A stretch of DNA of 45,980 nt, taken from IMG/VR virus record IMGVR_UViG_2529292882_000016; one strand, 5' to 3'. The DNA is from a virus (taxonomy: Duplodnaviria > Heunggongvirae > Uroviricota > Caudoviricetes). Position 1 is the stretch's first letter, and every line of letters begins with the position of its first letter. The position numbers were made by a program, and so were the translations under genes. The notes under the pieces are model-generated. The model saw nothing but the letters and a program-made list of their open reading frames with translations, made no database searches and was not told the origin of the DNA. This document shows, one piece after another, positions 1 to 42,545 of this stretch.

Positions 1-483
1 ATGACGAAGAAAAAAGCACATAAACCTGGTTCAGCGACCATCGCGCTTAACAAGCGCGCCCGTCACGAATACTTTATCGAAGAAGAGTTCGAAGCGGGAC
101 TTGCCCTGCAAGGCTGGGAGGTTAAATCCCTGCGCGCAGGAAAAGCCAATATCAGCGACAGCTACGTCCTTCTGCGTGACGGAGAGGCATTTCTGTTTGG
201 CGCTAACATCACGCCAATGGCCGTGGCCTCCACGCATGTGGTGTGCGATCCTACCCGTACCCGCAAGTTACTTCTCAACCAACGCGAACTGGACTCATTG
301 TACGGTCGCGTCAATCGAGAAGGCTATACCGTAGTGGCGCTCTCCCTGTACTGGAAAAATGCCTGGTGCAAAGTGAAAATCGGCGTCGCCAAAGGTAAAA
401 AACAGCACGATAAACGTTCAGATATCAAAGAACGCGAATGGCAGGTGGATAAAGCACGTATCATGAAAAACGCCCACCGTTAA
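1..483 (+). CDS. smpB: SsrA-binding protein SmpB (160 aa, full length)
   Basis: Translation [50 protein letters not shown]... matches enterobacterial SmpB as I recall it; sits immediately upstream of ssrA as in E. coli. Confidence 0.95.
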
Positions 484-697: not shown

Positions 698-1060
698 GGG
701 GCTGATTCTGGATTCGACGGGATTTGCGAAACCCAAGGTGCATGCCGAGGGGCGGTTGGCCTCGTAAAAAGCCGCAAAAAATAGTCGCAAACGACGAAAA
801 CTACGCTTTAGCAGCTTAATAACCTGCTTAGAGCCCTCTCTCCCTAGCCTCCGCTCTTAGGACGGGGATCAAGAGAGGTCAAACCCAAAAGAGATCGCGT
901 GGAAGCCCTGCCTGGGGTTGAAGCGTTAAAACTTAATCAGGCTAGTTTGTTAGTGGCGTGTCCGTCCGCAGCTGGCAAGCGAATGTAAAGACTGACTAAG
1001 CATGTAGTACCGAGGATGTAGGAATTTCGGACGCGGGTTCAACTCCCGCCAGCTCCACCA
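698..1060 (+). ncRNA. ssrA: tmRNA (SsrA, transfer-messenger RNA)
   Basis: Starts GGGGCTGATTCTGGATTCGACGGG, contains the tag-reading-frame region (GCAAACGACGAAAACTACGCTTTAGCAGCTTAA) and ends GGGTTCAACTCCCGCCAGCTCCACCA; about 363 nt, matching E. coli ssrA. Confidence 0.95.
1034..1060. repeat. 27-bp direct repeat CGGGTTCAACTCCCGCCAGCTCCACCA (att core at the intact ssrA end)
   Basis: Identical 27-mer recurs at 41072..41098; flanking bases differ on both sides (g/a upstream, c/a downstream). Confidence 0.85.
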
Positions 1061-1258: not shown

Positions 1259-1831
1259 TTACGTAACGTCAAACGCCCGGATTGAAACCAAATCATTCAG
1301 ACTATTCAGCTCTTGCTTCATCTCCCGCTGACGCTGATAAATCTCGTCATTGCGATCGACCTGTGCCTGCGCCATTGCTGCCGCCAGTTCTTCAAGTTCC
1401 TGCATCGACAGTTTCACCTGTTGATTATCAGCGTCGCCCCACGCAAGGGCGGTTCGTGCCGTATCAGATTTTGCAGCCATTACCACCGGATAGAGACGGG
1501 CCAGTGAGTCTGGGCCAGCATTCCAGGTGCGACCGTTCCATTCGAACGTGAACGGCTGCGACTCCTGTTCTGCGCGCCATGCCTCGATTTCCATCTTTTT
1601 GGCATCTTTTGCCGCTGCGATAAGTTCGGGCGTGACGGTGAACGGGGCAATTTCACCCCATTTGCCGCTCTGTAACTCTTCCCAGATGCGCTGGCCTGTC
1701 GGTGCGGTATCATCCTGCATGGCGGTATACAGGACGAATTCCGTTTCACCCTCAAATAACACCTCGCAGTCAACCGCACCATTTTCAAGGTAATGCGCGT
1801 TTCTGATGCCTTTTACCGCTCTGATTTTCAT
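1259..1831 (-). CDS. Tail fibre assembly/chaperone-like protein (190 aa)
   Basis: Immediately downstream of the Stf-like gene in the tfa position; C-terminal helical region loosely resembles Tfa-type chaperones. Confidence 0.55.
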   Translation of the reverse strand: MKIRAVKGIRNAHYLENGAVDCEVLFEGETEFVLYTAMQDDTAPTGQRIWEELQSGKWGEIAPFTVTPELIAAAKDAKKMEIEAWRAEQESQPFTFEWNGRTWNAGPDSLARLYPVVMAAKSDTARTALAWGDADNQQVKLSMQELEELAAAMAQAQVDRNDEIYQRQREMKQELNSLNDLVSIRAFDVT

Positions 1832-1844
1832 GTTTTATTCCCCG

Positions 1845-4800
1845 TTACTCGATGCGCACAAACAGGCAGATACGACCGCTTGTTCCGTAAGAGTCCCTGA
1901 CCCCGGATAACGCCATATAACGCCCCGGAAAAGTGTACCCTGTTGCTCCTGCACTTGGTGTTGAACCGTAAGAGCCAGGCCCGGCAGAAGATATTGTGCA
2001 CGAAAGATTAACTCCGCCCAGTTGTGACCCCTGCACCACATCACCCAGGCCAATTTTGATTTCTTTATCCCCGGAAGTTGTTCCGCGATAAACAGCCAGC
2101 ACCGGAACACCCACTGCCGGGTATTTGAAATATGAGCCTGAGCCCGCCATCCTGGACAACAGGTACGCCAGTGAATCTCCGTCGTAGACAACTACCCGCG
2201 ATGACATGTTCCAGCTGTTATCGCTGTCGTTGTACCGGTACTGCATATAGTGAATGCAGTGTTCACCCTGATAATACTGGTTGTAACACATCAGGGTTTT
2301 AAATTTGCGGACTGTGTCAGATTCACTGTTGGCGTACGGGGACCACATCACGTCAATAATGCCGTTAAATTGCGTGGTACCGGTAAGCAGTTGTGATGAA
2401 TCTGTAATACTGACCGCATACCGCCCCGGCGTGACTTTCTTCAGCCATTCAACGAAATCAGACAGTCCCTCAAACGCCAGGGCTTCAGTGCTGGTAAATG
2501 CCTGACCAAATCCATGCATGCCGGACAGTGCCAGCCTGCCCGGTGTGCGGTCGCGGATATCACTCTGGGGTTCCATCGTCGCAGCCGCTTTCAGTTCAAG
2601 CTCCGTGCGCATGGCCTCAGGCGTGTCCAGTGCCAGTAATGCGCGGGCTTTTTCTGACAGTTGCGCCAGTAAAATCCGGCCCTCTGCACTGAAATAAGGC
2701 AGCGTGTTTTCTTCCGGTGTTATCTGGCTGACAGCCGTTAACACGTCATTAAGCGGCTGTTTACCTGCCAGTGCTTTAGTGACCGTTGTCGCAAAGTTCG
2801 GGTCATTACCCAGCGCCGCTGCCAGCTCGTTCAGCGTGTCCAGGGCTTCAGGTGATGAGTCAACCAGCGCAGCAAGCAGTTTGCGGACAAACTCCGCATT
2901 GGCTATTTCATTACCTGCTGCATCATCCGGCGGGGTTGGCGCGGACGGAGTTCCGGTCAGTGCCGGACTTTTCAGTGGCGCGCGGGCTTCAATCAGCGCA
3001 ATAAGTGAAGCCTCATCAACCTTCAGGTTTTCCCAGCCAACCAGAAAACCACCATCTGATGACACCGCGCAACGGTTATAATAAATATGACCATTAACAC
3101 CGTAATAAATAATTATCTTATAGGCATACTCATCATTCGGGCTGGTTTTAGGTTGTGGCCAGATAATTTCAATAACACCGTTTGTCTGAATGCCTGGCAC
3201 TACCACATCTGTGTCTGCAAATACGGCATAACGACCGGGTTTTGCTGTTTTTACCCAGCGGAGAAAATCAGTCCCTGATTTAAACTCTGTTCTGTCGCTG
3301 AATAACATCCCGAAACCGAACATGCCAGGAATCGCCAGTCGACCTTCGGTGCGGTCGTAAATATTCTCCTGTGCATCCTTCTGTGCTGCATTGCCAAGTT
3401 GTGGCGTCAGATTCGTCCAGGTGACCGGGGCGGAGATATTATCGCCACGAACGGTCATGAGTATCCGTCCGTCTTTTCCAAAAAACAGAACCAGCTTTGT
3501 TGCTGTCTGGCTTGTTTTGTCGCCCCAGCCATTATCCAGCCAGATAATTTCTGTTATTCCGGTTGTTTCTTCCGTTTGCGTGGAAAAGGTGTAATACCGT
3601 CCCGGGTGCAGGTTGTGCGCAGTTCTGGCTACAGTCGCCATATCGCTGGCAATAATTGCCGTACTTCCGGCGTCCGTCATTCCGTAACCAAATGCACCAG
3701 GTAGCGCAACACGGCCTTCCGAGCTGTCGTAAAGGTCTGTCTGAATGTCCCTTACCGCTGCGCTTTTCAGCTCAAGCTCATTGCGCATGGTTTCCACTGT
3801 GGCCTGTGCCAGCAGTGACCGGGCTTTTTCTGACAGTGGAGACAGTGAAGCATTTCCGTCCTGATTAAAGCACAGAAGATTATCTGCCCGTTCTTCCAGA
3901 TTACTGATTGCGGTTAACACGTCACTGAGTGGTTGTTTACCCGCCAGCGCGTTCATGATTGTTGTCGCAAACTCCGGGTCATTGCCCAGCGCCGCTGCCA
4001 GCTCGTTCAGTGTGTCCAGGGCTTCCGGGGACGAGTCAACCAGCGCAGCAAGCAGTTTGCGAACAAATGCCGCGTTCGCCATCTCCAGCCCGGTCGCATC
4101 GTCCGGTGGGGTTGGTGTGGTTGGCGTGCCGGTGAACGCCGGGCTGTCCAGCGGCGCTTTTGTTTTCGTCTCGTCCATGACGGTTTTGACGGCCTTCGGT
4201 GTGGCTGCCAGTTCTTCGCTGTCGTTATCCGTATCACTACAGAGTTGCACCAGGCCTTTTTCTGTCGTGGAAGCATTGCTTCCCTTCAGGTCATCAACTA
4301 TCCGTTGCGCCTCGTCCCTGTGCTGTTTCGCACCCTGCTCGCTTTTTGCAGCCGCTTCGGCGCTGGCTTTTGCCTCACCGGTCAGCGTTGCGGCATCAGC
4401 AAGTTTATCGACCGCTTTCTGGACTATCGCGTCAGCATCCTTGACAGCCTGTTCTGCGCGGGCGGCATCCTGTGTGGCAGATGATGCCAGCTGTGCCACC
4501 TGCTTTTTATCTTCGGCAACGGCTTCTGCATTCTGCTGTACGTTATCCGCCAGCGTCTCGCAGTCGCTCTTGATTTGTTGCGCATCAGCGACATGTTGCC
4601 CGGCCTGTTGTTCGCTTTCCGCTGCCGCTTCCGCGCTCTGCTGCGCCTGCGCCACCATTTCCTCAAAGCGTTTCACCACGTCGGGTTTGAGGTCGCCTTC
4701 ATCAAGGGCAGTCAGAAAGTCGTTCAGCGTGCCGGGCCTGGAGTCGTCGTATACAGCAATGTCGCCAACACAGTACTCATCGCGCCAGTCCTGTCTCAGA

Positions 4801-4982
4801 TAAACGCAGTATTTTCCGACCTGCGCCTCGAACGAATATTCACCATTATTTCCGGTCACCACATCAGCCTTAGTGCACATCACTACTTCTGAGGTGTTTA
4901 CCCGGGATTTCAGAATTATGTGGCATCCGGACATGGGGATGCCTGCGCCATCAATCAGCGCACCTGATATCACTACAGACAT
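1845..4982 (-). CDS. stf: Side tail fibre protein, lambda Stf-like (1045 aa), with internally duplicated modules
   Basis: N-terminus (ISGALIDGAGIPMSGCHIILKSRVNTSEVV..., VYDDSRPGTLNDFL) and the motif LAATPKAVKTVMDETKTKAPLDSPAFTGTPT resemble lambda Stf as I recall it; long Ala/Glu-rich coiled region. Confidence 0.85.
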   Translation of the reverse strand: MSVVISGALIDGAGIPMSGCHIILKSRVNTSEVVMCTKADVVTGNNGEYSFEAQVGKYCVYLRQDWRDEYCVGDIAVYDDSRPGTLNDFLTALDEGDLKPDVVKRFEEMVAQAQQSAEAAAESEQQAGQHVADAQQIKSDCETLADNVQQNAEAVAEDKKQVAQLASSATQDAARAEQAVKDADAIVQKAVDKLADAATLTGEAKASAEAAAKSEQGAKQHRDEAQRIVDDLKGSNASTTEKGLVQLCSDTDNDSEELAATPKAVKTVMDETKTKAPLDSPAFTGTPTTPTPPDDATGLEMANAAFVRKLLAALVDSSPEALDTLNELAAALGNDPEFATTIMNALAGKQPLSDVLTAISNLEERADNLLCFNQDGNASLSPLSEKARSLLAQATVETMRNELELKSAAVRDIQTDLYDSSEGRVALPGAFGYGMTDAGSTAIIASDMATVARTAHNLHPGRYYTFSTQTEETTGITEIIWLDNGWGDKTSQTATKLVLFFGKDGRILMTVRGDNISAPVTWTNLTPQLGNAAQKDAQENIYDRTEGRLAIPGMFGFGMLFSDRTEFKSGTDFLRWVKTAKPGRYAVFADTDVVVPGIQTNGVIEIIWPQPKTSPNDEYAYKIIIYYGVNGHIYYNRCAVSSDGGFLVGWENLKVDEASLIALIEARAPLKSPALTGTPSAPTPPDDAAGNEIANAEFVRKLLAALVDSSPEALDTLNELAAALGNDPNFATTVTKALAGKQPLNDVLTAVSQITPEENTLPYFSAEGRILLAQLSEKARALLALDTPEAMRTELELKAAATMEPQSDIRDRTPGRLALSGMHGFGQAFTSTEALAFEGLSDFVEWLKKVTPGRYAVSITDSSQLLTGTTQFNGIIDVMWSPYANSESDTVRKFKTLMCYNQYYQGEHCIHYMQYRYNDSDNSWNMSSRVVVYDGDSLAYLLSRMAGSGSYFKYPAVGVPVLAVYRGTTSGDKEIKIGLGDVVQGSQLGGVNLSCTISSAGPGSYGSTPSAGATGYTFPGRYMALSGVRDSYGTSGRICLFVRIE

Positions 4983-5005: not shown

Positions 5006-5551
5006 TCAGGAAGAGGCTTCCGGAGAGACGGGCCATTCAATGGCGTTATATGAAGCTTTATCAGTGATGGGGCTGAAATCCATCGCCTGCAGCGATTTCG
5101 CGTAAATGCGGTACGCTTTCAGCTTCTCCCTGTCTTCGTCACTGATTAATCCCAGCAGCAGGTCTTTTTCCCATTCGCTGGTCATGATGCTGACCTGTTT
5201 TAACAGGGCGTCGCGCTCGCCTTCCGCTTTTAGTTTGTAGTCGAAAACAAATTCATCATTGCGGTAAAACCAGAAGCCCGGCGCAGTAATACGACGGTTA
5301 GCGGTAATATCCGGGAGTTCAATGATGCTGACGTTAGTGGGTTCGATACCTGTCACATCCTTACCGACCCACACCACACGCCCTCTTTCATTGTAGGCCA
5401 CTTTTATAGTGTCACTGGCAAAGTTCTTCTGTTCTTCATACCAGTTTTTGCCGTCCTCCGAAAAAAGCCAGACAATACTATGCCGCTTTGTCATCTGATA
5501 TTGCTCTGCCGTTTTCGGATTACCCGCAGTAATATTTTTTAAATGCAACAT
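5006..5551 (-). CDS. Tail fibre assembly protein, Tfa-like (181 aa)
   Basis: Downstream of a tail-fibre gene; C-terminus ...AIEWPVSPEASS resembles the lambda Tfa C-terminus (DIEWPAVP...). Confidence 0.6.
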   Translation of the reverse strand: MLHLKNITAGNPKTAEQYQMTKRHSIVWLFSEDGKNWYEEQKNFASDTIKVAYNERGRVVWVGKDVTGIEPTNVSIIELPDITANRRITAPGFWFYRNDEFVFDYKLKAEGERDALLKQVSIMTSEWEKDLLLGLISDEDREKLKAYRIYAKSLQAMDFSPITDKASYNAIEWPVSPEASS

Positions 5552-5553
5552 TG

Positions 5554-6570
5554 TTATACACTCGACGCATTATACCAGGTGCCGTTAATTAATTTCTGAA
5601 TAGGTCTTGAATACAGTTTTAGTGCTGATGACGGGGCAACATCACCACCAACCACGACATACCCCGAAGGAACGGTAAAATCATCGTCATAGTGCCCGTC
5701 AACCCTCTGACTACCCAGCCTGATATCCTGCACACCGCCATTTCGCTGCTGATAACGGGCATCAAAGTTTCCGTAGTCTGACGGTGTTACCCGTCCTGAA
5801 ACATTCACTGCCCGGTTACTTTGTAACGCGCCATTCTGAAAACGGAATACGTGCTGACCATTGGCATAAACATCCAGCAGGCCGTCACCATTCTGTTTCA
5901 GGCCGGTATCGTTATCCCCGAAAGCAATTGAGTTTCCACCCAGCGCGTTCTGAACGCCGATACCCAGCGCACCATTGACCTGAGAACCGCCGCCAACAGA
6001 CACTTTATGCGACATGGATATTTCACCCGTCCGCAGATTAATAGTGAACGGTCGAAGTGGACCAATATCGCCATTCTCGCCCTGATTTTCCCGGGTGGGA
6101 ATAAGATGCAGGCACTCTTCCGAACGACGAAAAATAAGGCCAAAAGTGTCGTTGAAAATCCTCAGCGCATTAACACCACGGATTTTTAGTTCTCCGGTCA
6201 TGGTATCACCATCACGCTGAACGGCATTTTTTGCCTTGTCCACCGTGGGTTTTAATCCGAGGTTTTCAACAGCCTCATCCTTGTCTTCCACATCCGAAAG
6301 GTTATTTTTTATCAGCAATGCCTCTTCGTTAATTGCACCACCCACCAGTAATAATATGGCTTTATATAGCTGATCGTGTTCTTCTTTATTCAGTTCTATC
6401 CCGGCCTTCTCAATGACACCACAGATTTCCTCCTGAATGGCATCCCACATGGCACTGTTCAGCCAGGTGGCAAGACGTCCTGTGCGAAGATTTCCATCAG
6501 TAAATCCGTTCTTGCCCGGGCCAAACTTATCTTTTACCGCTGTCAGCGTATCAATCCTGTGCATCTTCAT
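5554..6570 (-). CDS. Tail fibre protein (338 aa), P2 gpH / Mu S-like
   Basis: Contains the GDTMTGEL motif typical of myovirus tail fibres; Gly/Asn-rich C-terminal region; follows the baseplate genes. Confidence 0.7.
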   Translation of the reverse strand: MKMHRIDTLTAVKDKFGPGKNGFTDGNLRTGRLATWLNSAMWDAIQEEICGVIEKAGIELNKEEHDQLYKAILLLVGGAINEEALLIKNNLSDVEDKDEAVENLGLKPTVDKAKNAVQRDGDTMTGELKIRGVNALRIFNDTFGLIFRRSEECLHLIPTRENQGENGDIGPLRPFTINLRTGEISMSHKVSVGGGSQVNGALGIGVQNALGGNSIAFGDNDTGLKQNGDGLLDVYANGQHVFRFQNGALQSNRAVNVSGRVTPSDYGNFDARYQQRNGGVQDIRLGSQRVDGHYDDDFTVPSGYVVVGGDVAPSSALKLYSRPIQKLINGTWYNASSV

Positions 6571-7141
6571 CCTCGTCTGGATAGGAAAATAAAACGACGG
6601 TGTGTGACGGACATAATTTATTAATCACGCACTCCGCAACCGTATCCCCCCACGTCCGGATCGGTGTGTTGCAGGCGTCTGTGCATGTCTGCCACTGAGC
6701 ACCGGCATCCACCGGCAACGTCACACGCCAGAAATAACGCCAGCGATCACCCCATTCCGGATCGGGGCTTGCATCCAGATTCTGGAACTGTTCGATCGTC
6801 ACGCCGGTATATCCCAGCGCCTCAAGCTGATCCAGGAAGAACTGCTCATTGATGCCACCAGCCACATTGGCTTTTGCTTCAAGACGTTGCTGACGCTGAC
6901 GTAATGTCTGGGTTCCGACAGGGGAACAGGAATCAGGTAAACCATACAATTCTTCATAACGTTCAATCAGCTCTGTGGACTGACCGGGATCGATTTCAAT
7001 CACCAGTTCATCAGCCCGCTGGTGAACACGCACAAGCGATGGTGCCAGACCGTCAAGTACACCGTCGGTATCTGACCATGCAGGTCCCGGCGGCATCAGG
7101 CCATACAACAATTTTGTATAATCATCCTGTAACGTATCCAT
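6551..7141 (-). CDS. Tail protein, Mu gp48 / YmfQ-like (196 aa)
   Basis: Position and size downstream of the baseplate J-like gene in a Mu-type tail cluster; family assignment from synteny and recollection. Confidence 0.5.
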   Translation of the reverse strand: MDTLQDDYTKLLYGLMPPGPAWSDTDGVLDGLAPSLVRVHQRADELVIEIDPGQSTELIERYEELYGLPDSCSPVGTQTLRQRQQRLEAKANVAGGINEQFFLDQLEALGYTGVTIEQFQNLDASPDPEWGDRWRYFWRVTLPVDAGAQWQTCTDACNTPIRTWGDTVAECVINKLCPSHTVVLFSYPDEDEDAQD

Positions 7142-8223
7142 TATTTACTCCTTACCGGGTCATAAGCCTGCCATGTGATCTCCCCGAGCACCGGAAGCTC
7201 AGTTTCCCCCAGGTCAATATCCGATGAAGGGTCGATAAGTCGATGGGCCACCTCACCTGCAGATAAACTGATAGCCTCGCTGATTCTGGACAGATACATG
7301 CGCCCTTCCGGCACACCATCCCGGAACATCAGCGCATTCAGTTCTGATTTTATTGCCGCCCTGATCTGCGGTGTGTCTTTCGATAACGCAATCGTCATCG
7401 GAATGACTTTTTCTGTGGCACCGAATACATACAATCCGCTTCCGGCAACAGGTGCCAGAGGAAGGATGTGGTCCCTGACTGCGTTAATCACGCTTTCATC
7501 CGGGGCCGGGTGTTCCGGATCGTTTGTCGCCACCATCACGCCAACCGTTCCAATCCCTTTCCAGTGTCTGAAAGTCCATGCACGGTTAATACCCTGAACT
7601 TCTTTCGCCCAGATAACATAATCAGGGTCTGCGCCCCCCTGTGGAATGTAGTAATAACGTTCCATAACGCGGGCACGCCATATTTCCAGATTTTCAATAT
7701 CTTCACCGTCTGTAATGGTGTCTGCGTACCCTGTGGACGGCAGACCACTGACGGGTGTTCCCAGCTGCATGGCAATACCATCATCCGTATTCCCCGCCGA
7801 TCCCGGTTCGTCTGCCACAACAGGCACCCGGAGAAGACCATCGGCTGCGGTCACCGTCGCCGTCGTGGTGAAGGTCACCTGATCATCACGCTGGATCTGC
7901 GTTCCCGCCGGCAATACCGGCGCCCCCTCTACGCCATCCCAGCGCACAAATCCCCGGGCTGCCACCGCATCTTTTCGCGGGCAGCGTTTGATTCTGGCGT
8001 GCCGGTACAGCCAGTCTTCATCACACATGTCCGGTAACAGATTTCTGGCAAGATAATCGATATACCCGTACAACGTGTGCACAGCTGCAGCCTGTACACG
8101 GGCGTACACTTCCGCATCCATACGACGAAGCAGCGTATCCTGCTCAAAGCGGGTTAATAAATCACTCCGGATCATAGAAATAAGTTGCGGAAGGCCGGGG
8201 CGATAAAACTGACTGTCAGCCAT
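7141..8223 (-). CDS. Baseplate J-like protein (Mu gp47-like, 360 aa)
   Basis: Size and synteny within a Mu-like baseplate operon; start overlaps upstream gene stop. Confidence 0.65.
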   Translation of the reverse strand: MADSQFYRPGLPQLISMIRSDLLTRFEQDTLLRRMDAEVYARVQAAAVHTLYGYIDYLARNLLPDMCDEDWLYRHARIKRCPRKDAVAARGFVRWDGVEGAPVLPAGTQIQRDDQVTFTTTATVTAADGLLRVPVVADEPGSAGNTDDGIAMQLGTPVSGLPSTGYADTITDGEDIENLEIWRARVMERYYYIPQGGADPDYVIWAKEVQGINRAWTFRHWKGIGTVGVMVATNDPEHPAPDESVINAVRDHILPLAPVAGSGLYVFGATEKVIPMTIALSKDTPQIRAAIKSELNALMFRDGVPEGRMYLSRISEAISLSAGEVAHRLIDPSSDIDLGETELPVLGEITWQAYDPVRSK

Positions 8224-8629
8224 TCAGTTCACTCCAGATATCATCAAAAATAATGTTGTGAATATTGCCGTCACGCTGGTAAATGGTAATGGCAAGTGCC
8301 AGCGAGTCTGTCCCGGTCCTGACAGCGTTAATATCAAGACGGGAAGCAACACCATCCTCCACCATCCACGCCAGCGCTTCACGGGCATAATCTCTGGCAA
8401 GCTGCGGGGTTTTATTTGTCAGCTTGCTGCGTCGCAACAGATACAGACGCGACCCCGTGCGATCATTCTGAACCGCAGGCCAGGTATCCCCCCACCATCC
8501 AAATATCTGCGGTGCATCATCATCACGCCCTGCACGCCGCCAGGTAAAAAGCGAAATAATCACAGCACGCGTCAGAAGGTCGAGCGAAGCCCCGGTCGAC
8601 ACGGTTCGCCCGTTAACATTAATCATCAT
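8216..8629 (-). CDS. Baseplate protein, Mu gp46 / GPW-like (137 aa)
   Basis: Synteny between the spike-like and J-like genes; typical size. Confidence 0.5.
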   Translation of the reverse strand: MMINVNGRTVSTGASLDLLTRAVIISLFTWRRAGRDDDAPQIFGWWGDTWPAVQNDRTGSRLYLLRRSKLTNKTPQLARDYAREALAWMVEDGVASRLDINAVRTGTDSLALAITIYQRDGNIHNIIFDDIWSELNG

Positions 8630-8634
8630 GATTT

Positions 8635-9168
8635 TCAGCCCATCGGTTGATCTGGCGTGTCAGTGATCCCACCACTATCACCATTTTCGGTGTGTTTGTG
8701 GGCATTGTAGGTCTGCCGCATTTGCTGCATGCTGAGTCCGCCACTGTCGCAATTGTCAGTAATATCAGCGGTGGATTCGACAGGCATTTCAAAGCGCGCT
8801 TTAGGCGCGTTTTGAAAAATAATGGGCTTCCCGCCCCCGTTCACCACAATACCGGAACGAGTCAGGACAACGGATTGCCCCTGATCGTCATAAAGCGCCA
8901 CTTCCCCACGTTTCAGTCCTTTCAACCGGTAACGTCTGTCAGCCACGACCACAACCACACCATGAGAACGATCGCCCGCCGGGAATAAAGCAACGCCCTC
9001 AGCACCGTTCTGTGCAGCAGATGTAAAACCATAAGGCTCAAGGTGCTCAACGTGTTGTTTCTGATCTCCGGCTATCATTTTCAACCCTACAGACTGACAC
9101 TTTCTGGCGGAATCCACCGCCGTGATGACAGCCCGGGAAATCAGATTGCGAAGAGAAAACCCGTTCAT
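8635..9168 (-). CDS. Baseplate assembly protein V / spike-like (177 aa)
   Basis: Synteny in the Mu-like baseplate cluster; size consistent with the gpV/gp45 family. Confidence 0.5.
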   Translation of the reverse strand: MNGFSLRNLISRAVITAVDSARKCQSVGLKMIAGDQKQHVEHLEPYGFTSAAQNGAEGVALFPAGDRSHGVVVVVADRRYRLKGLKRGEVALYDDQGQSVVLTRSGIVVNGGGKPIIFQNAPKARFEMPVESTADITDNCDSGGLSMQQMRQTYNAHKHTENGDSGGITDTPDQPMG

Positions 9169-10223
9169 CAGAAATCCTCCTCAACATTTTTTTTCTTCCT
9201 GGCGGTAACAGGCTCGGGGAGATAAGCATCTGCCGGGCCAACCCGTAATTCAGTCGTCGTGCCCCGGTCGTCCTGGTTATAGGTGACTTCTGCGATCACC
9301 AGTTCATCATTATCAAAATTATTCAGCGGGTCGAAAACGATGACAGATAACCCCGGACGCCATAACGCGCCACTGCCCTGCCGCCAGCCCTGAACCGTAT
9401 ATGTTGTCTCACGGGTAAGCGCAGCCCGTTGACGCGCTTCAAATTCACAACGGGCCTTACAGGTTGCTGTCGTTGCTGTGCCTGACTGCTGAATCAACAA
9501 AGGGCGATAACGGGTCACACCACTGTCCTGAATGGTCTGACGTATTGCGGCAATGGTAGCCTCACCAAAATCATCATCGTTGCCCGGGCGCTGCCCACTG
9601 ACCTGATATTCAGAAAACCGCTCTCTGATGCTTCTTTCCGTGTCACAGGAAAGAATATTCTCTCCCAGCACCAGTGCTGTCGCCGCTTTGCCTGTTCCGG
9701 GTTTCCCCAGAACCAGTCGACCGCATTCATCGTCATAAGCCAGCGTCTGAACCTGCCCCAGCAACCGGTTAAGACAATCAGCAACGGTTTCGCCGTGTTC
9801 CGGCTGGGCATCAATCACCGCTGTCTGCGGCACACCGGCGTCAACAACGGTGATGCCAAATGGCGCAGCCAGTTCACTGACGATTCTGAGCAGGTTTTTT
9901 CCGCTCTGCTGGACTGGCAAAGCAGAGCAGTCAACCAGATCGGCTGTTTTGCTTCGCCCGACAATTCCCATGCTGACGCTGCTGGCGTCATAACGAAGCG
10001 GTAGAGCCTCCACATATCCGGTGAGCACGGGCTCATCCCCGATAAGCACTTCAACCAGCTCACCATTTTTTATCCGGGGCTGATAATCCCGGCTTCCGGG
10101 CCAGCGGGTGGTAATGGCAACATTAAAATCCCGGGCAATACGGTTAATGCCCGCACTGATACGGACGGATGTCCAGCCGCCCCATTCGCGACCAGAAACC
10201 CGAAGTAAAACGGTATTATTCAT
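9168..10223 (-). CDS. Tail protein, Mu P / late-control-D-like (351 aa)
   Basis: Synteny between the DNA-circulation-like and spike-like genes; start overlaps upstream stop (ATGA). Confidence 0.5.
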   Translation of the reverse strand: MNNTVLLRVSGREWGGWTSVRISAGINRIARDFNVAITTRWPGSRDYQPRIKNGELVEVLIGDEPVLTGYVEALPLRYDASSVSMGIVGRSKTADLVDCSALPVQQSGKNLLRIVSELAAPFGITVVDAGVPQTAVIDAQPEHGETVADCLNRLLGQVQTLAYDDECGRLVLGKPGTGKAATALVLGENILSCDTERSIRERFSEYQVSGQRPGNDDDFGEATIAAIRQTIQDSGVTRYRPLLIQQSGTATTATCKARCEFEARQRAALTRETTYTVQGWRQGSGALWRPGLSVIVFDPLNNFDNDELVIAEVTYNQDDRGTTTELRVGPADAYLPEPVTARKKKNVEEDF

Positions 10224-11611
10224 CTGACGGGTACCCTTAATGCCCGGATCGGAACAAAGCCCGGATGGGAGATGGCATTTCGATCCAGGATATCAGTTTC
10301 ACGGGACGCATCGTCGTACCATGACGCAGCCAGAACAAGCGCAGGAAGAACCTCCGCTGGCGTTCGCTCTGCGGTCTCCTCCGTCTGAACCAGACGGGCC
10401 TGAATATCCCGGTTCAGTTCTGTACGTAATGACGTCAGCTGAAAAAACAGCCTGTCATCCGCCGTACGCCTGAGCTCCTGTTCAATCGCCGCGTTCAGCG
10501 ATTCGCGTATAATGGTGAGATTTTCCCGCGTGGGTGGTTGTGCTGTCTCATTCTGCTCGGTACTGGCAGCCACACTGTCAAGTGCCGGATGAGAAACATG
10601 AATGATATCGGACTGACGTTCAGTGGAACCACCAACAGCCACAACCGCCTGCTGATTTTTCACCAGACTTCCGGGTTGCGGCAGTGAAGTGACCGCCCTT
10701 GCAGCCTCGCTGATTGCCGTCGTCCGGATGACTGCAGCCACCAGATTTGTCTGCTGTTTTTGCCTGACAACCGATGCGGAATCTGTGGGCCACACCGCAC
10801 GCGGTGCCAGTCCTGGATCCAGCGTAATACCGGACATTGTCGTTATGGACTGCACCAGATCCTGTGTGTTGTCCACCAGTCTGGTTCCTGCCCGCCAGGT
10901 ATCCTGCAACGTATGCACAAAATCACTGGCAACCGATGGCGGCATCAGAATGACGGATAAATCGCCCTGCATCAGCCTCATTCCGGCAGAAACAGCAGAA
11001 TTAACCATTTTGAAAGCTGTCTGAACGGTTCCCAGCATATCGGTTGCCCGGGCAATAACATCGTTCTGAATAAAGTCCGATATTCCCGCGAGATCAAAAT
11101 CGCCGAACATGTCTTCAATCAGCTCATCCAGGAATCCGGACGACTCCTCCAGTTTTCTGGCGGTTGCGGCTCCGGCGACCGGAAATGACAGTTCCCCGCT
11201 CTCAACAAACTGAAATGAAACCCGGCACATACGGCCTTCAGTGCTGGAGTGAGAAACGGTCACCTGTCCGTCAATACAGCCCTGCATTTCACCGAACTGC
11301 GGATGGATCAGTGTCCCCGGCCCGGCGGTTTCAATCGCGGTAATCAGCCTGTCGCGCTGCTCTGCGTAATCATCACCAACGAGATACGCATTAATCGTCA
11401 GCCGTCGCGTGGCACGCCCGAGATCTTCCGTGTACGGTTTGTCACGGTTTGGGTATTCATGGACCTGAACGCGGCGTCCGAACGAACCCTCGTCGCTTTC
11501 CACCGAAAACGGAACGCCACGAAATGAAGCATCGTAAAGATTATCGCGCCAGGTCGTTCCGGAAGATGAAGAAAACAAAGAGGACAAAGAAGGTAAGGAA
11601 GGAAAATCCAT
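10220..11611 (-). CDS. Mu N-like DNA circulation / tail protein (463 aa)
   Basis: Follows the tape-measure gene as in Mu-like tail clusters; size consistent. Confidence 0.45.
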   Translation of the reverse strand: MDFPSLPSLSSLFSSSSGTTWRDNLYDASFRGVPFSVESDEGSFGRRVQVHEYPNRDKPYTEDLGRATRRLTINAYLVGDDYAEQRDRLITAIETAGPGTLIHPQFGEMQGCIDGQVTVSHSSTEGRMCRVSFQFVESGELSFPVAGAATARKLEESSGFLDELIEDMFGDFDLAGISDFIQNDVIARATDMLGTVQTAFKMVNSAVSAGMRLMQGDLSVILMPPSVASDFVHTLQDTWRAGTRLVDNTQDLVQSITTMSGITLDPGLAPRAVWPTDSASVVRQKQQTNLVAAVIRTTAISEAARAVTSLPQPGSLVKNQQAVVAVGGSTERQSDIIHVSHPALDSVAASTEQNETAQPPTRENLTIIRESLNAAIEQELRRTADDRLFFQLTSLRTELNRDIQARLVQTEETAERTPAEVLPALVLAASWYDDASRETDILDRNAISHPGFVPIRALRVPVR

Positions 11612-11626
11612 TCTGATACCCCATTA

Positions 11627-13576: not shown

Positions 13577-13660
13577 GCTTCATCTCCTCGTTAATGCGGA
13601 CGGCCTCGGCTTCCAGTTCTGTAAACTGCGAAATAGCCACCCGTCGCAGCTCCAGTGGAT

Positions 13661-13990
13661 TCAGTTTCCAGAACCAGGCAACATTGTAGAGTCGTTTCCG
13701 GAGGTGCTTCCCGTCTCCGACTGGGTAAAAAAACGCAGGATCTGCATGCTGGTCTTAAAAATATCCAGTTTTGCCATCTGCGCCGCCGATGAACGCGGGA
13801 TCCCCGCCAGCAGCGGGATATATTTCAGTGCCACCTGGCTGTCCAGTTTAATACTGCCCTCACCGGAAATAATGAAAGGAAAACCCAGGGCCTCGATTTC
13901 GTCATACGTGGGTTCACGCAACTCCAGCACATGCAGCGTTTCGTTATGCGCTGTCACCGGTTTTTTTAAAACAATTTCTGTCACGCTCAT
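13661..13990 (-). CDS. Tail assembly chaperone-like protein (109 aa)
   Basis: Small gene between tail tube and tape measure, the conserved chaperone position. Confidence 0.4.
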   Translation of the reverse strand: MSVTEIVLKKPVTAHNETLHVLELREPTYDEIEALGFPFIISGEGSIKLDSQVALKYIPLLAGIPRSSAAQMAKLDIFKTSMQILRFFTQSETGSTSGNDSTMLPGSGN

Positions 13991-14346
13991 TACTGATATC
14001 CTCCCTCTTCGCCGTGGAATTCAAGATCTGCCGTACCTTCTTCGGCATTATGGTTTGCTTCGCCATGCAGCCAGGCCGCCGAAAGCACATACACCATGCC
14101 GTTTGCCAGCTCGGCAGTAATCGTCATCTGGTCTGAGGCGGTAATTTTGTCGACCGGAAAATTTTTGGGCACTTTAAACGTGCCCTTAACGTAAGGTGAC
14201 CGCCAGGTCTCCTTGTAATCCACATCACCAGCCATGCCGACGACATCATCCCGGACATTGGTGTTCATCGGCACTTCAATGCCACCTGTCAGCGATAACT
14301 GCTGACCATCCACTTTAAAAAAACAGGTTCCGGCGATCTTTGCCAT
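13990..14346 (-). CDS. Tail tube protein (118 aa)
   Basis: Immediately downstream of the sheath gene; typical size for a myovirus tube protein; start overlaps sheath stop. Confidence 0.6.
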   Translation of the reverse strand: MAKIAGTCFFKVDGQQLSLTGGIEVPMNTNVRDDVVGMAGDVDYKETWRSPYVKGTFKVPKNFPVDKITASDQMTITAELANGMVYVLSAAWLHGEANHNAEEGTADLEFHGEEGGYQ

Positions 14347-15842
14347 TATGCTGACTCCTCTGAATACTGGAGACGGAACTGGTTAACCACCGCAAAGACA
14401 CGTAACTGGTTAACATAATCCGGCGGGAACAGCGTGTTCAGTCGGTTCGGGTTATCCGCATCACGCTCAACTATCAGATACTGTTTAAACAGATCGTAAT
14501 TTTCCACAATACCGGCACGCTCCATCTGACGATATGTCGCCAGAAGCTCCCCTTTGATAACGGCAGGAGTAACAATCGCCTGCCCAGGACCAAAACGGGT
14601 ACCATCATTTGCCAGCTTGTGGCGTCCGTACTTGCTTGTGATGACCGATTTCAGTTTGCGAAGAACATATGCGCTGGTATGCAGTGTTTCACTGTCCAGA
14701 TAGCTGTTGTCTGCCACGCCATATGCATTCTTTTTGTATGTGGTTACGGAACGCTGGATCCGCAACGTGCCGCCTTCCACATAAGCCGTCGCCACGCCGT
14801 GAGATAAAAGGGTCTGCTGCTCTGTCATGATGAATCGCTTACCTTTCGGTGCCGGAAGCATCCCCACCAGTTCCCCCGTCTGTGTCGGACGGGCCGGATC
14901 ATTGCGGATAAATACCGCTTCACGGGCAAGGCGACTGGCAACCAGTTCATCGACAGGCGACTGGGTTTCTTTTTCGTAACCGGCAAGCGTGATATGTTGC
15001 TGATTATGCATATCTCCGGCATCAACCAGCTCTGACAGCGTTCCCAGTTTTGCGGTATAGACATGCCCGTATAACTGGCGCGCATAACTCCAGCGACCGC
15101 TGCTGTCATTCATTTCGGTCATCATCATATTGATGGAGGCGGCATCGTTGAACGGCAGACCGATAAAGTCGAATGCCTCATCGCCCATAGCAGCAACAGC
15201 GGCAGTAAGATCAGGCGCGCCACTACCCGCAGTTCCGGCTTCCGTCACAACCTGAAGCCCCGCAGGCAGAATCTCACCACCACCAGAACCATAATAATTC
15301 AGGCAGACAGGCAACTCGTTACCATACAGCCCCTTATGGCGGGCAGTCAGCGTCACCACACCTGCATCAGATGACGCCGCAAACGGCAGGGTGATAACCC
15401 CGTTTACCGCTTCCTTAATCGCGGTGGCAACCGCAGTAGCATCATCGCCATTCACCACAGGCACCTGTACACGGGAGCGCCCGACATACAGACTCATGGT
15501 GCCGCTTTCCTCTGCTTCTCCGGTAACTGTCACCCTGACCGTCGCCGCCGCCCCTTTGGCTTCCGGTACTGCAATAACATACAGTTCACCGAAAGGATCT
15601 GTCTGACGGTAGACGTCAACCATACGCGCCAGCTGGCTCCCGGCCCCACAAATCTGACGGGCATAATCTGCCGACGGCATCAGCACCAGGCTGTTAACCT
15701 CAATGGCGGCATCGTTGCTGGCATGCCCAATCAGTAATGCAGGCGCGCTGGTCACCGCTGTATTTGCCGCAGAATTGTCCATCTCGGCGTAGAACAACGG
15801 CACCAGCGTATTCGACGGAACAGCACTAAAACTTATTGTCAT
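14346..15842 (-). CDS. Contractile tail sheath protein (498 aa)
   Basis: Size, position upstream of tube, and composition typical of myovirus sheath proteins. Confidence 0.75.
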   Translation of the reverse strand: MTISFSAVPSNTLVPLFYAEMDNSAANTAVTSAPALLIGHASNDAAIEVNSLVLMPSADYARQICGAGSQLARMVDVYRQTDPFGELYVIAVPEAKGAAATVRVTVTGEAEESGTMSLYVGRSRVQVPVVNGDDATAVATAIKEAVNGVITLPFAASSDAGVVTLTARHKGLYGNELPVCLNYYGSGGGEILPAGLQVVTEAGTAGSGAPDLTAAVAAMGDEAFDFIGLPFNDAASINMMMTEMNDSSGRWSYARQLYGHVYTAKLGTLSELVDAGDMHNQQHITLAGYEKETQSPVDELVASRLAREAVFIRNDPARPTQTGELVGMLPAPKGKRFIMTEQQTLLSHGVATAYVEGGTLRIQRSVTTYKKNAYGVADNSYLDSETLHTSAYVLRKLKSVITSKYGRHKLANDGTRFGPGQAIVTPAVIKGELLATYRQMERAGIVENYDLFKQYLIVERDADNPNRLNTLFPPDYVNQLRVFAVVNQFRLQYSEESA

Positions 15843-39602: not shown

Positions 39603-39812
39603 GTGGGGCTGGATTGCGTACCTATATCAACCTACTGCCGCAACGCAGGAGAAACGGTTGATGCCGTTAACAAACGGATACAAAGAGGAATATGGAAAGA
39701 AGGGGTACATGTATTAAAAGTCGACGGAGTTAAAGAACGTTGGGTCGACTTAATGGAGATTACAAAATGGGCAAGAAAGAACAAGGATCACTATCTCTCC
39801 CTAGAGGAGTAA
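39603..39812 (+). CDS. xis: Excisionase-like protein (69 aa; GTG start assumed)
   Basis: Small basic protein immediately upstream of and overlapping int, as in lambda xis-int; winged-helix-like composition. Confidence 0.5.
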   Translation: MGLDCVPISTYCRNAGETVDAVNKRIQRGIWKEGVHVLKVDGVKERWVDLMEITKWARKNKDHYLSLEE

Positions 39813-40939
39813 CTATTCGCCAGCATAAAACTGGTAGCACTCTGGTTATCACTTTTACATATAAAGGGGTTCTGTGTCGGGAGCCCCTCTCCAGAATGGA
39901 AGTAAACGCGCGCGGTGTGAAGTACGCTGAGCGTCTGCTGGGAGAAATAAAAAATCAGATTATCGATGGTACCTTCGAATATGCAAAATACTTCCCCAAC
40001 TCCCAAAAGCTGGAGTTGTTCGGGGGAGTGAAAAAAAACAAAAATATAAAATCTTACCTGGATGAATACCTGATTATCTGCCAGAACCGTAACCTGTCAC
40101 CATCGACAATTAGAGGTTATGAAAAATGCCTGTCGGCGCTGTCAGCATTGCATAAATTTCATGTATCAGAACTGACACCTGCAGTACTAAAAAACTGGAT
40201 CGCCAGCAGAAAAACAAAACTGAAAACTATCCGCAATAATCTTTCATTCTTGCGCAGCGCCATAGATGAAGCGGTGACCGATGGTTTGTTAACAATAAAT
40301 CCTGTCACGCTAGTCAGCGCCAGCCGGTATCACGTATTGGACAACACACCAGGCAGTGATGATTACGAGGTCGATCCTTTTACACCAGCGGAGACGGCAG
40401 CAATCTATGACGCCTGTCATTACCCGGAATGGCGAAATCTGTTTCGCTTTGCCTTTAATACAGGACTGCGCAGCTCAGAATTGTGCGCGTTGCGCTGGAC
40501 GGATATAGACTTTATCGGCAACACCGCGCATGTTCAGACTGCAAGCGTAGTCGGGGTAATCAAAAGCACCAAAACAAAAGCCGGCACCCGCAAAGTGCAA
40601 CTGAACAGCGAAGCGCTGGCGGCTCTTCAGGCACAAAAGCCCTACACGGCGCTAAAGAGCGACTTCATATTCAGCGATCCGAAAACTCGCGCTCCTTGGG
40701 CAAACGCAGATGCGATCCGAAAAAAAGCCTGGGTACCAACCCTTAAAAAAGCTGGTGTACGCTATCGCAATCCGTACCAGACACGCCACACGTTCGCCAC
40801 TCGGCACATTAGCCAGGGCGTTAACCTGTTCTGGCTTGCTGGTCAGATGGGGCATAAAGGACCGGAAATGCTGTTCAGACATTACGGCTCTTACCTTGCA
40901 GAATACGATGGAAAAACGGCGATTTCTGCAACCCCGTAA
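39767..40939 (+). CDS. int: Tyrosine integrase, lambda Int-like (390 aa from ATG 39767)
   Basis: C-terminal catalytic region with RHTFATRHISQG...RHYGSYL (R/H/R/Y-type motifs); transcribed toward the att repeat at 41072. Confidence 0.85.
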   Translation: MGKKEQGSLSLPRGVTIRQHKTGSTLVITFTYKGVLCREPLSRMEVNARGVKYAERLLGEIKNQIIDGTFEYAKYFPNSQKLELFGGVKKNKNIKSYLDEYLIICQNRNLSPSTIRGYEKCLSALSALHKFHVSELTPAVLKNWIASRKTKLKTIRNNLSFLRSAIDEAVTDGLLTINPVTLVSASRYHVLDNTPGSDDYEVDPFTPAETAAIYDACHYPEWRNLFRFAFNTGLRSSELCALRWTDIDFIGNTAHVQTASVVGVIKSTKTKAGTRKVQLNSEALAALQAQKPYTALKSDFIFSDPKTRAPWANADAIRKKAWVPTLKKAGVRYRNPYQTRHTFATRHISQGVNLFWLAGQMGHKGPEMLFRHYGSYLAEYDGKTAISATP

Positions 40940-41303: not shown

Positions 41304-42545
41304 ATGGCAAGACAAACCAAACCTCTATCCGTTAAAGAAATAGAATCAGCCAAACCCAAGGAGGCGGACTACGTTCTCTATGATGGCGATGGCCTTGAGC
41401 TACTCATTAAATCCAGCGGGAGTAAAATCTGGCAGTTTCGCTACATTCGCCCTGTCACCAAGAAACGAGCAAAGAAGAGCATAGGCTCCTACCCGTCAGT
41501 TACCCTTGCCGATGCCAGAAACTACCGTGCAGAGTCCCGCTCACTACTGGCTAAACAGATCGATCCGCAGGAACATCAGCAAGAACAATTGCGCAGTTCG
41601 CTGGAAGCCAAAACCAACACTTTCCAACTCGTAGCTGAACGTTGGTGGAATGTGAAGAAAGCCAGTGTGACAGAGGACTATGCGGAAGATATCTGGCGCT
41701 CTCTTGAAAGAGACGTCTTTCCTGCGATTGGCGACGTTAGCGTTACAGATATTAAAGCTCATACACTGGTTCAGGCCGTACAACCGGTTCAGGCCAGAGG
41801 AGCACTGGAAACTGTTCGTCGCCTGTGCCAACGTATTAATGAGGTCATGATCTATGCCCAGAACACAGGGCTGATTGATGCTGTTCCCAGCGTTAATATC
41901 GGTAAAGCCTTCGAGAAGCCTCAGAAAAAGAACATGCCCAGCATTCGACCGGATCAGCTACCTCAGTTAATGCAGACGATGCGAACAGCCAGCATTAGCC
42001 TTTCCACACGCTGCCTGTTCATGTGGCAACTTCTTACTATTACCCGCCCTGCCGAAGCGGCTGAAGCTCTCTGGGAAGAGGTAGACATAGAAGCGCGAGA
42101 GTGGAAGATTCCTGCAGCACGCATGAAAATGAACCGCGACCATACTGTTCCATTGTCAGATGAAGCAATTGCGATACTAGAGATGATGAAGCCGTTAAGT
42201 GGAAATCGAGAATTTATCTTTCCCAGCCGCATCAAGCCAAACCAGCCGATGAACAGTCAGACCGTAAACGCATCGCTAAAACGCGCAGGTTTTGGTGGGG
42301 TGCTCGTTTCACACGGCCTGCGATCTATCGCCAGTACAGCCCTTAATGAGCAGGGATTTCCACCTGATGTTATTGAGGCTGCACTTGCTCATGTGGATAA
42401 GAATGAGGTTCGTCGTGCGTATAACCGTAGTGATTATCTTGAGCAGCGACGGCCTATGATGCAGTGGTGGGCTGATTTTGTGATGGCTGCAGATCACGGT
42501 AGTATGATTGAAGGAGGGATAAAGGCAATGCGGTTAGTTGGATGA
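41304..42545 (+). CDS. intA: P4-type tyrosine integrase, CP4-57 IntA-like (413 aa)
   Basis: N-terminus MARQTKPLSVKEIESAKPKEADYVLYDGDGLELLIKSSGSKIWQFRY and C-terminus ...HVDKNEVRRAYNRSDYLEQRRPMMQWWADF typical of P4-family integrases; about 200 bp after the ssrA 3' end. Confidence 0.85.
   Translation: MARQTKPLSVKEIESAKPKEADYVLYDGDGLELLIKSSGSKIWQFRYIRPVTKKRAKKSIGSYPSVTLADARNYRAESRSLLAKQIDPQEHQQEQLRSSLEAKTNTFQLVAERWWNVKKASVTEDYAEDIWRSLERDVFPAIGDVSVTDIKAHTLVQAVQPVQARGALETVRRLCQRINEVMIYAQNTGLIDAVPSVNIGKAFEKPQKKNMPSIRPDQLPQLMQTMRTASISLSTRCLFMWQLLTITRPAEAAEALWEEVDIEAREWKIPAARMKMNRDHTVPLSDEAIAILEMMKPLSGNREFIFPSRIKPNQPMNSQTVNASLKRAGFGGVLVSHGLRSIASTALNEQGFPPDVIEAALAHVDKNEVRRAYNRSDYLEQRRPMMQWWADFVMAADHGSMIEGGIKAMRLVG

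Follow-up and report, generated by a model that had tools for sequence, protein, structure and literature searches.

Recombination at conserved motifs and internal duplication are long-established ideas for phage tail fibre genes. Work by Haggard-Ljungquist in 1992 and by Sandmeier in 1994 reportedly described motifs common to P2 H, Mu S, P1 S and lambda Stf, and Tetart in 1998 is said to have found that domain duplications in T4 gp37 expand the host range. In the side tail fibre (Stf) of Ur-lambda, studied by cryo-electron microscopy and tomography, residues 394-422 form the hinge that joins the proximal to the distal fibre, and residues 423-525 the distal coiled coil (PMC12617516). The C-terminal parts of lambda Stf can be swapped to retarget the fibre, and engineered Stf chimeras work (PMC11338833). 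Here we describe a side tail fibre gene in the IMG/VR virus record IMGVR_UViG_2529292882_000016, a stretch of 45,980 nucleotides (nt) from a virus of the Caudoviricetes, which as a whole is called the window. The gene encodes a protein of 1045 amino acids (aa) and belongs to a Mu-like prophage of Escherichia coli. Its product is quite probably a long, trimeric, modular fibre with an old two-unit layout, made and remodelled by homologous recombination at the core of a repeated module, A.

A repeat search found one direct repeat, of 254 nt, the copies of which are 80% identical (204/254), are spaced 1176 nt apart and lie within the single open reading frame (ORF) of the fibre gene (Table 1). An internal duplication in a side tail fibre gene, with copies ~1.2 kb apart, had been proposed in a sequence-only reading of the window, and it was recovered at the places named there. 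The self dot-plot of the protein showed a continuous diagonal at an offset of 392 aa (aa 261-445 against 653-837, ~185 aa), an extended repeat and not short motifs alone, together with weaker diagonals at offsets of 124 and 268-270 aa. The best local alignment, of aa 273-496 with aa 665-893, has 120 identities in 231 positions (52%), and includes an identical run of 31 residues, FVRKLLAALVDSSPEALDTLNELAAALGNDP, as well as the peptides quoted in the earlier reading. The two A modules (131 aa each) are 68.7% identical (BLASTP E 6.6e-48). The length of the diagonal and this E value leave next to no probability for an assembly artefact or a chance likeness of short motifs. The protein is also 100% identical to the NCBI protein ESTG_01215 of Escherichia coli B799, and the same layout occurs in complete genomes and in the independently sequenced phage Rac-SA53.

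The module order of the fibre is N-CC-F2-A1-B1-B2-A2-B3-C, where N is the N-terminal collar domain, CC the proximal coiled-coil region and F2 a single Phage_fiber_2 repeat. Unit 1 (A1-B1-B2, aa 273-664) and unit 2 (A2-B3-C, aa 665-1045) abut directly, head to tail, and begin with the same left edge, APL[D/K]SPA[F/L]TGTP; about 250 nt of each are near-identical and ~690 nt can be aligned. The suggestion of a ~0.4-kb module in tandem did not hold, as the actual period is 392 codons (1176 nt), with A-B-B followed by A-B-C. The B module, ~125-140 aa long and beginning with GRxxxxGxxGxG, is present in three copies, the third of which ends near residue 935. Pairwise, the B modules are 31-40% identical in protein, with BLASTP E values of 1e-15 (B1/B2), 2e-18 (B2/B3) and 4e-9 (B1/B3); these come from a small database, and the bit scores are nevertheless far beyond chance. 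An RxxxPGxFGxG-type motif occurs at aa ~424, ~548 and ~816. The motif module that had been noticed behind each repeat is thus real, and there are three copies of it, not two. The N-proximal coiled coil (window 4266-4685, aa 100-239) has protein repeats of its own: SAEAAAESEQQAGQH recurs 91 aa further on as SAEAAAKSEQGAKQH, and a second internal diagonal lies at an offset of 35; the corresponding region of phiP27 L56 is shorter.

The contiguity of the units, with their period of 392 codons, and the exact runs of 29 and 26 nt shared by the DNA cores of A1 and A2 would suit a recent tandem duplication in the prophage of this strain, by replication slippage or unequal crossover, that is, a young and possibly unstable copy-number variant. 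The distribution of identity along the repeat argues against it. Compared codon by codon, A1 and A2 are ~93% identical in DNA over aa 308-336, with few synonymous changes, whereas synonymous differences affect about half of the identical codons in the flanks, where the amino acid identity goes down to 45-65%. Windowed nucleotide identity between them spans 39% to 96% (39-64% in the vicinity of the core), and the B modules of the two units share far less in protein than the A modules do. Within one protein, A1 and A2 are 60-82% identical, against 94-100% for orthologous A1 copies (123 two-unit proteins). The module order A-B-B-A-B (ABBAB) was observed in 120 of the 120 nearest clusters formed at 90% identity, which come from E. 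coli, E. marmotae and Salmonella and include one with a C-terminal truncation, and a copy covering at least 80% of the fibre gene is present in 18 complete E. coli genomes. The steep gradient of identity, the greater closeness of orthologous A1 copies than of paralogous ones and the ABBAB order across all 120 clusters show that the duplication long predates this strain. Of the marks of a recent duplication, the gene shows head-to-tail adjacency. Identity is not uniformly high along the unit, and close relatives do not lack the layout. We rejected this explanation on the uneven identity, the shared layout and the contrast between orthologs and paralogs, and hold it to be very improbable. The duplication is neither recent nor peculiar to this genome: across a large family of Mu-like and phiP27-like prophage fibres, the two-unit layout is old and fixed, an instance of known tail-fibre mosaicism and not a new phenomenon. 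Many NCBI records (P0006, P0008, P0013 and others) label the ABBAB tail fibre 'shikimate transporter', evidently a propagated annotation error.

Across the 120 two-unit clusters, residues 81-560 (CC, F2, A1, B1 and the beginning of B2) are nearly invariant. Two patches are hypervariable: in the B2 core (aa 581-640) the majority fraction is 0.64-0.71, and in the C tip (aa 981-1040) it is 0.69-0.75. The A2 core between these patches is conserved. At a threshold of 85%, there is one sequence type of B1, eight of B2, three of B3 and 11 of C, which is the most variable part (median identity 68.5%). The types of B2 and C are found in many combinations; therefore, the distal cassettes have been exchanged independently, with the conserved segments as joints. 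B2 may be a second surface under diversifying selection, a hypothesis with which this pattern is compatible.

The number of units varies among relatives, as a comparison proposed in the earlier reading showed. phiP27 L56 (490 aa) is N-CC-B-C and has no A; pPE4 gp69 (667 aa) and Av-05 gp76 (416 aa) have one A-B-C unit; Rac-SA53 tail3 (1061 aa) and several E. coli genes (~1035 aa) are ABBAB. Lambda Stf (774 aa), which had been credited with one such unit, does have one A module and has no B. In E. coli strains STEC308 (locus L006, 1446-3410) and STEC711 (locus L007, 1495-3459), fibre genes cut inside B2 (ABB, 655 aa) are annotated as pseudogenes, and the DUF4376 gene is retained ~300 base pairs (bp) past them; these truncated fibres are decayed versions of the two-unit gene. 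The StfR protein of K-12 (Rac stfR, locus L012, 1120 aa) had no A or B module detectable at E <= 1e-3 with our A and B hidden Markov models (HMMs), and its C-terminal end is like that of lambda Stf (…NIAFNYIVRLA), which itself has an A module. A classic two-unit fibre had been expected in StfR, and it was left out of the comparison.

The expectation that the repeats serve as recombination substrates was borne out by two one-unit genes. pPE4 gp69 and Rac-SA53 tail3 differ by exactly 1182 nt (394 codons), which the former lacks. Up to nt ~966 pPE4 gp69 is in the proximal register, and from nt 967 it is in the distal one, with no mismatches over 967-1155; therefore, the crossover lies in nt 967-989, in the conserved-core codons DTLNELAA. 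In the one-unit protein P0128 (628 aa), the 5' part of the A module matches A1 of the 1045-aa fibre except for two private substitutions that differ from both A copies, and the 3' part is identical to A2 at every residue. As both genes carry chimeras of A1 (5') and A2 (3'), we identify the A core as the recombination joint. Megablast matches in other E. coli genomes end exactly on the boundary of the A2 core, at query positions 884 and 893. A part of A2 is A1-like (82-98% in nt) in Rac-SA53 and strain 401651, and the same part is only 39-64% alike in the A2 of the 1045-aa fibre. Over the core, A1 and A2 agree at 87 of 102 nt, compared with 69-73 of 102 between either of them and Av-05 at a similar protein identity. 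pPE4 is deposited as 'Actinobacillus phage vB_Apl-pPE4' (PP818812.1; fibre gene at 2501-4504 of locus L003), and its gene order at this locus is that of the E. coli phage Rac-SA53. The two fibre genes are ~90% identical in nt in the proximal part and 95% in the distal part (97% beyond the crossover); the stated Actinobacillus host looks doubtful, unless the transfer was very recent.

In the explanation that we favour, the fibre would consist of an N-terminal collar and a proximal coiled coil, followed by the shaft units A1-B1-B2 and A2-B3-C. A would be a widely conserved hinge-plus-coiled-coil segment, B a knob-like globular domain of ~130 aa, and C a variable distal tip. Homologous recombination at the nucleotide-conserved A core (LDTLNELAAALGNDP) would have created the two-unit layout and would continue to remodel it. 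A crossover between the two cores would remove one period of 392-394 codons in frame and leave a short, one-unit fibre with its tip unchanged, while a crossover with other fibre genes would swap the distal cassette. The anatomy, age and distribution of the repeat, its variation in copy number and the points of crossover are matters of observation. Three points weigh against the explanation as a whole. The direction of the events cannot be read from sequence, as the same chimeric A results whether a two-unit gene lost a unit by deletion or a one-unit gene gained one by unequal crossover. The high DNA identity of the cores could stem from exchanges that occur often among many fibre genes, and not from conversion between the two copies of one gene. 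Finally, the expression and assembly of the fibre, and the docking of its lambda-type collar on a contractile-tail virion, are predictions. A programmed inversion or shufflon-type switch was also considered and rejected: relevant inverted repeats flanking the modules and an invertase gene next to the fibre gene were both absent.

The wide occurrence of the A core bears on another origin for the two units, in which an older A-B-B end received the distal A-B-C cassette of another phage's fibre and the similarity of the A modules is that of a universal fibre motif. An exhaustive HMMER search with A2-B3-C as the query matched 16,626 proteins at E <= 1e-3, many of them with multiple copies of the A core. 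B3 is 32-40% identical to B1 and B2, and so is not closer to them than to the B modules of phiP27 or pPE4 (45-50%); Rac-SA53 has a distal unit of the pPE4/phiP27 type, and B-A junctions are known in other layouts (BAB, BA). All of this would suit a fusion. On the other side, A1 and A2 align over all 131 aa, including flanks that lie outside the universal core; they are 69% identical to each other, against 50-55% to lambda or Av-05; and the two units share their left edge. We therefore regard a fusion as unlikely, though it deserves more weight than a recent duplication. The line between it and 'duplication followed by cassette exchange' is mostly one of wording, and is beyond what sequence can resolve.

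The best 150 representatives of the 16,626 matches (clustered at 50% identity) were mapped with A and B HMMs built for the purpose. As this ranking favours multi-copy proteins, the following counts are not frequencies: AB was the string of 23 proteins, BAB and BA of four each (one BA protein, P0136, stops inside the A module), ABBAB of two, and ABAB, BABAB, ABB and ABA of one each. Proteins with A modules alone had two, three, four, five or at least six A cores in 19, 25, 19, 16 and 27 cases, respectively, and one of 1039 aa has ten A cores head to tail. The counts do show that repetition and reshuffling of A and B modules are commonplace. The 1045-aa fibre also gave a full-length profile match to phrog_2636, the phiP27 L56-type tail fibre in its one-unit form (E 3.6e-285). 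The region from the N terminus to B1 matched profile positions 1-446, B3-C matched 319-568 and B2 matched 291-437. These matches overlap; therefore, the A-B part of the profile is present more than once in the fibre. We class the 1045-aa fibre as a two-unit variant of the phiP27 L56 / phrog_2636 family, like Rac-SA53 tail3.

Since residues 394-515 of lambda Stf align to A, this module is likely to be a kink followed by a rod segment. By analogy, the second A would supply a second hinge and rod segment and make the fibre longer and doubly articulated. B and C had no match in the Pfam or PDB sequence searches. A comparison of folds with solved knob domains (the phage K gp144 / R-pyocin knob fold) gave modest matches (Pa193 gp47, T4 gp34 and Mu S), which may fit a fibre "knob" domain for B and are not strong evidence for it. 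The C module had no assignable fold, and the auto-cleaving C-terminal chaperone Peptidase_S74, which was considered, had no Pfam match in the fibre. In the R-pyocin fibres there are two knobs and a lectin-like foot, and Knob2 and the foot are both variable and are suspected receptor binders (PMC11871291). We infer that the fibre binds its receptor through the C tip, possibly with a contribution from B2.

A bolder and rather doubtful proposal is that the fibre might be a doubly hinged adhesin of dual specificity, in which B2 is a second receptor site that evolves and reassorts independently of C, and in which recombination at the A core toggles in frame between long (two-site) and short (one-site) fibres. 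This would take place on a Mu-like contractile-tail virion that has a lambda-type collar domain in addition to a separate, conventional fibre set. The polymorphism of B2, as high as that of the tip, points to a testable second site of contact with the host.

At the left end of the window, smpB is followed by the transfer-messenger RNA (tmRNA) gene ssrA, which the prophage adjoins. The late genes are on the minus strand and Mu-like, and include those of a tail sheath, a tape-measure protein and a Mu-type baseplate (Mu gp45, gp46, Baseplate_J and gp48). Past the baseplate, the order is a 338-aa tail fibre gene, a Caudo_TAP assembly protein gene, the 1045-aa fibre gene and a DUF4376 gene. As the shorter fibre gene and its Caudo_TAP gene lie directly upstream of the 1045-aa fibre gene, the prophage encodes two different fibre-plus-chaperone sets. 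The DUF4376 gene follows the fibre gene also in phiP27, Rac-SA53, pPE4, Av-05 and the E. coli relatives. It is a conserved partner of this type of fibre, and its product is presumably an assembly or tip-associated protein; we infer that it aids assembly. A lambda-type Stf collar domain is encoded in a Mu-like prophage with contractile-tail genes (tail and baseplate genes, 6551-15842). This domain matches the Ur-lambda gpStfN chain 9e7m (phmmer, E 3e-16) and also the myophage 'collar spike protein' 7kjk, and the position of the CC module is homologous to that of the lambda proximal coiled coil (PMC12617516). An Ala/Ser-rich ORF of 282 aa runs antisense to the sequence that encodes the coiled coil; most likely it is an artefact of composition, produced by the GC-rich Ala/Gln/Glu codons opposite it. 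Two tyrosine integrase genes with differing arm-binding domains stand in tandem at the other end of the prophage; together with the prophage next to ssrA, they suggest two elements stacked at the tmRNA attachment site.

Table 1. Features of the window, in window coordinates, with amino acid (aa) positions in the 1045-aa fibre; AF2 pLDDT, AlphaFold2 predicted local distance difference test score
Feature	Position	Strand	Evidence
smpB	1..483		
tmRNA gene ssrA	698..1060		
DUF4376 gene, 190 aa, downstream of the fibre gene	1259..1831	-	PF14301, E 1.9e-16
Complete side-tail-fibre-type gene, intact ORF, 1045 aa	1845..4982	-	ORF list; Pfam PF08400 and PF03406
C module, aa 936-1045, predicted distal beta-rich tip domain	1848..2177	-	AF2 pLDDT ~75-80
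B3 module, aa 796-935, third putative knob-like domain, start PGRLALSGMHGFG	2178..2597	-	AF2 pLDDT 70-85
A2 module, aa 665-795, second putative hinge-plus-coiled-coil shaft module	2598..2990	-	Alignment to A1
A2 conserved DNA core (reference copy, family D1)	2728..2981	-	254-nt repeat
B2 module, aa 528-664, second putative knob-like domain, start EGRLAIPGMFGFG; hypervariable core aa 581-640	2991..3401	-	
B1 module, aa 404-527, first putative knob-like globular domain, start EGRVALPGAFGYG	3402..3773	-	AF2 pLDDT 65-75
A1 module, aa 273-403, putative proximal hinge-plus-coiled-coil shaft copy	3774..4166	-	69% aa identity to A2; aligns with lambda Stf 394-515
A1 conserved DNA core (repeat copy 2, family D1)	3904..4157	-	254-nt repeat
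Ala/Ser-rich ORF, 282 aa	3955..4803	+	
F2 module, aa 238-272, single Phage_fiber_2 repeat	4167..4271	-	PF03406, E 2.6e-15
CC module, aa 135-237, Ala/Gln/Glu-rich proximal coiled-coil region	4272..4580	-	Self dot-plot diagonals, offsets 35 and 91
N module, aa 1-134, prophage tail fibre N-terminal 'collar' domain	4581..4982	-	PF08400, E 2.2e-59, full-length profile
Caudo_TAP assembly protein gene	5006..5551		
Shorter tail fibre gene, 338 aa	5554..6570		
Baseplate genes	6551..9168		
Tail sheath gene	14346..15842	-	
Tyrosine integrase gene	39740..40939		
Tyrosine integrase gene	41304..42545		

The locus offers a clear natural example of tail fibres built from reusable modules. A nucleotide-conserved core of ~100 nt acts as an in-frame recombination joint that alters the length of the fibre and swaps its tips. 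The mapped joints (DTLNELAA) and the tolerated orders (AB, BAB, ABAB, ABBAB and others) can serve directly as design rules for chimeric fibres, in the retargeting of phages or packaged cosmids. The current understanding is not overturned; the most useful details are the derivatives with an exact in-frame deletion and the hypervariability of B2, an internal knob.

A literature search returned general background and no prior description of this ABBAB layout; in the Goslar structure preprint, the B-A-containing fibre gp90 was left unresolved. The 1045-aa fibre shares the PF08400 collar domain, the proximal coiled coil and the Phage_fiber_2 repeat with lambda Stf (Ur-lambda gpStf). The single A module of lambda Stf (residues 394-515) is ~53% identical to the A of the fibre (E ~1e-36), and makes up the hinge and the first part of the distal rod (PMC12617516). 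Past lambda residue 515 the similarity is absent, and the gp37-like tip was not found. Lambda Stf thus has one A, no B, a gp37-like tip, a Caudo_TAP Tfa chaperone and a siphovirus tail, in contrast to the two A and three B modules, the other C tip, the DUF4376 partner and the Mu-like myovirus context of the 1045-aa fibre.

The fibres phiP27 L56, phrog_2636, pPE4 gp69 and Av-05 gp76 resemble the 1045-aa fibre in the N domain, in the types of B and C module and in being followed by a DUF4376 gene. They have no A or one, and a single B, whereas the 1045-aa fibre adds the 392-codon unit A1-B1-B2. Rac-SA53 tail3, from the LT-II prophage, shares the ABBAB order and is 76.6% identical over its full length; it differs in its distal unit, which is a pPE4/phiP27-like B-C cassette, and in its partly A1-like A2. 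The R-type pyocin and P2-like fibres (knob1-knob2-foot) have no sequence similarity to the 1045-aa fibre, and the fold match is modest. Unlike them, it has a second predicted hinge/rod module, which sets the two knobs apart from a third knob and the tip. The earlier cases of fibre mosaicism share with the present one the joints at motifs and the internal duplications that alter the length or the specificity of the fibre. They use other modules or short His-box domains, and the ABBAB order with exact one-period deletion derivatives is specific to the present family.

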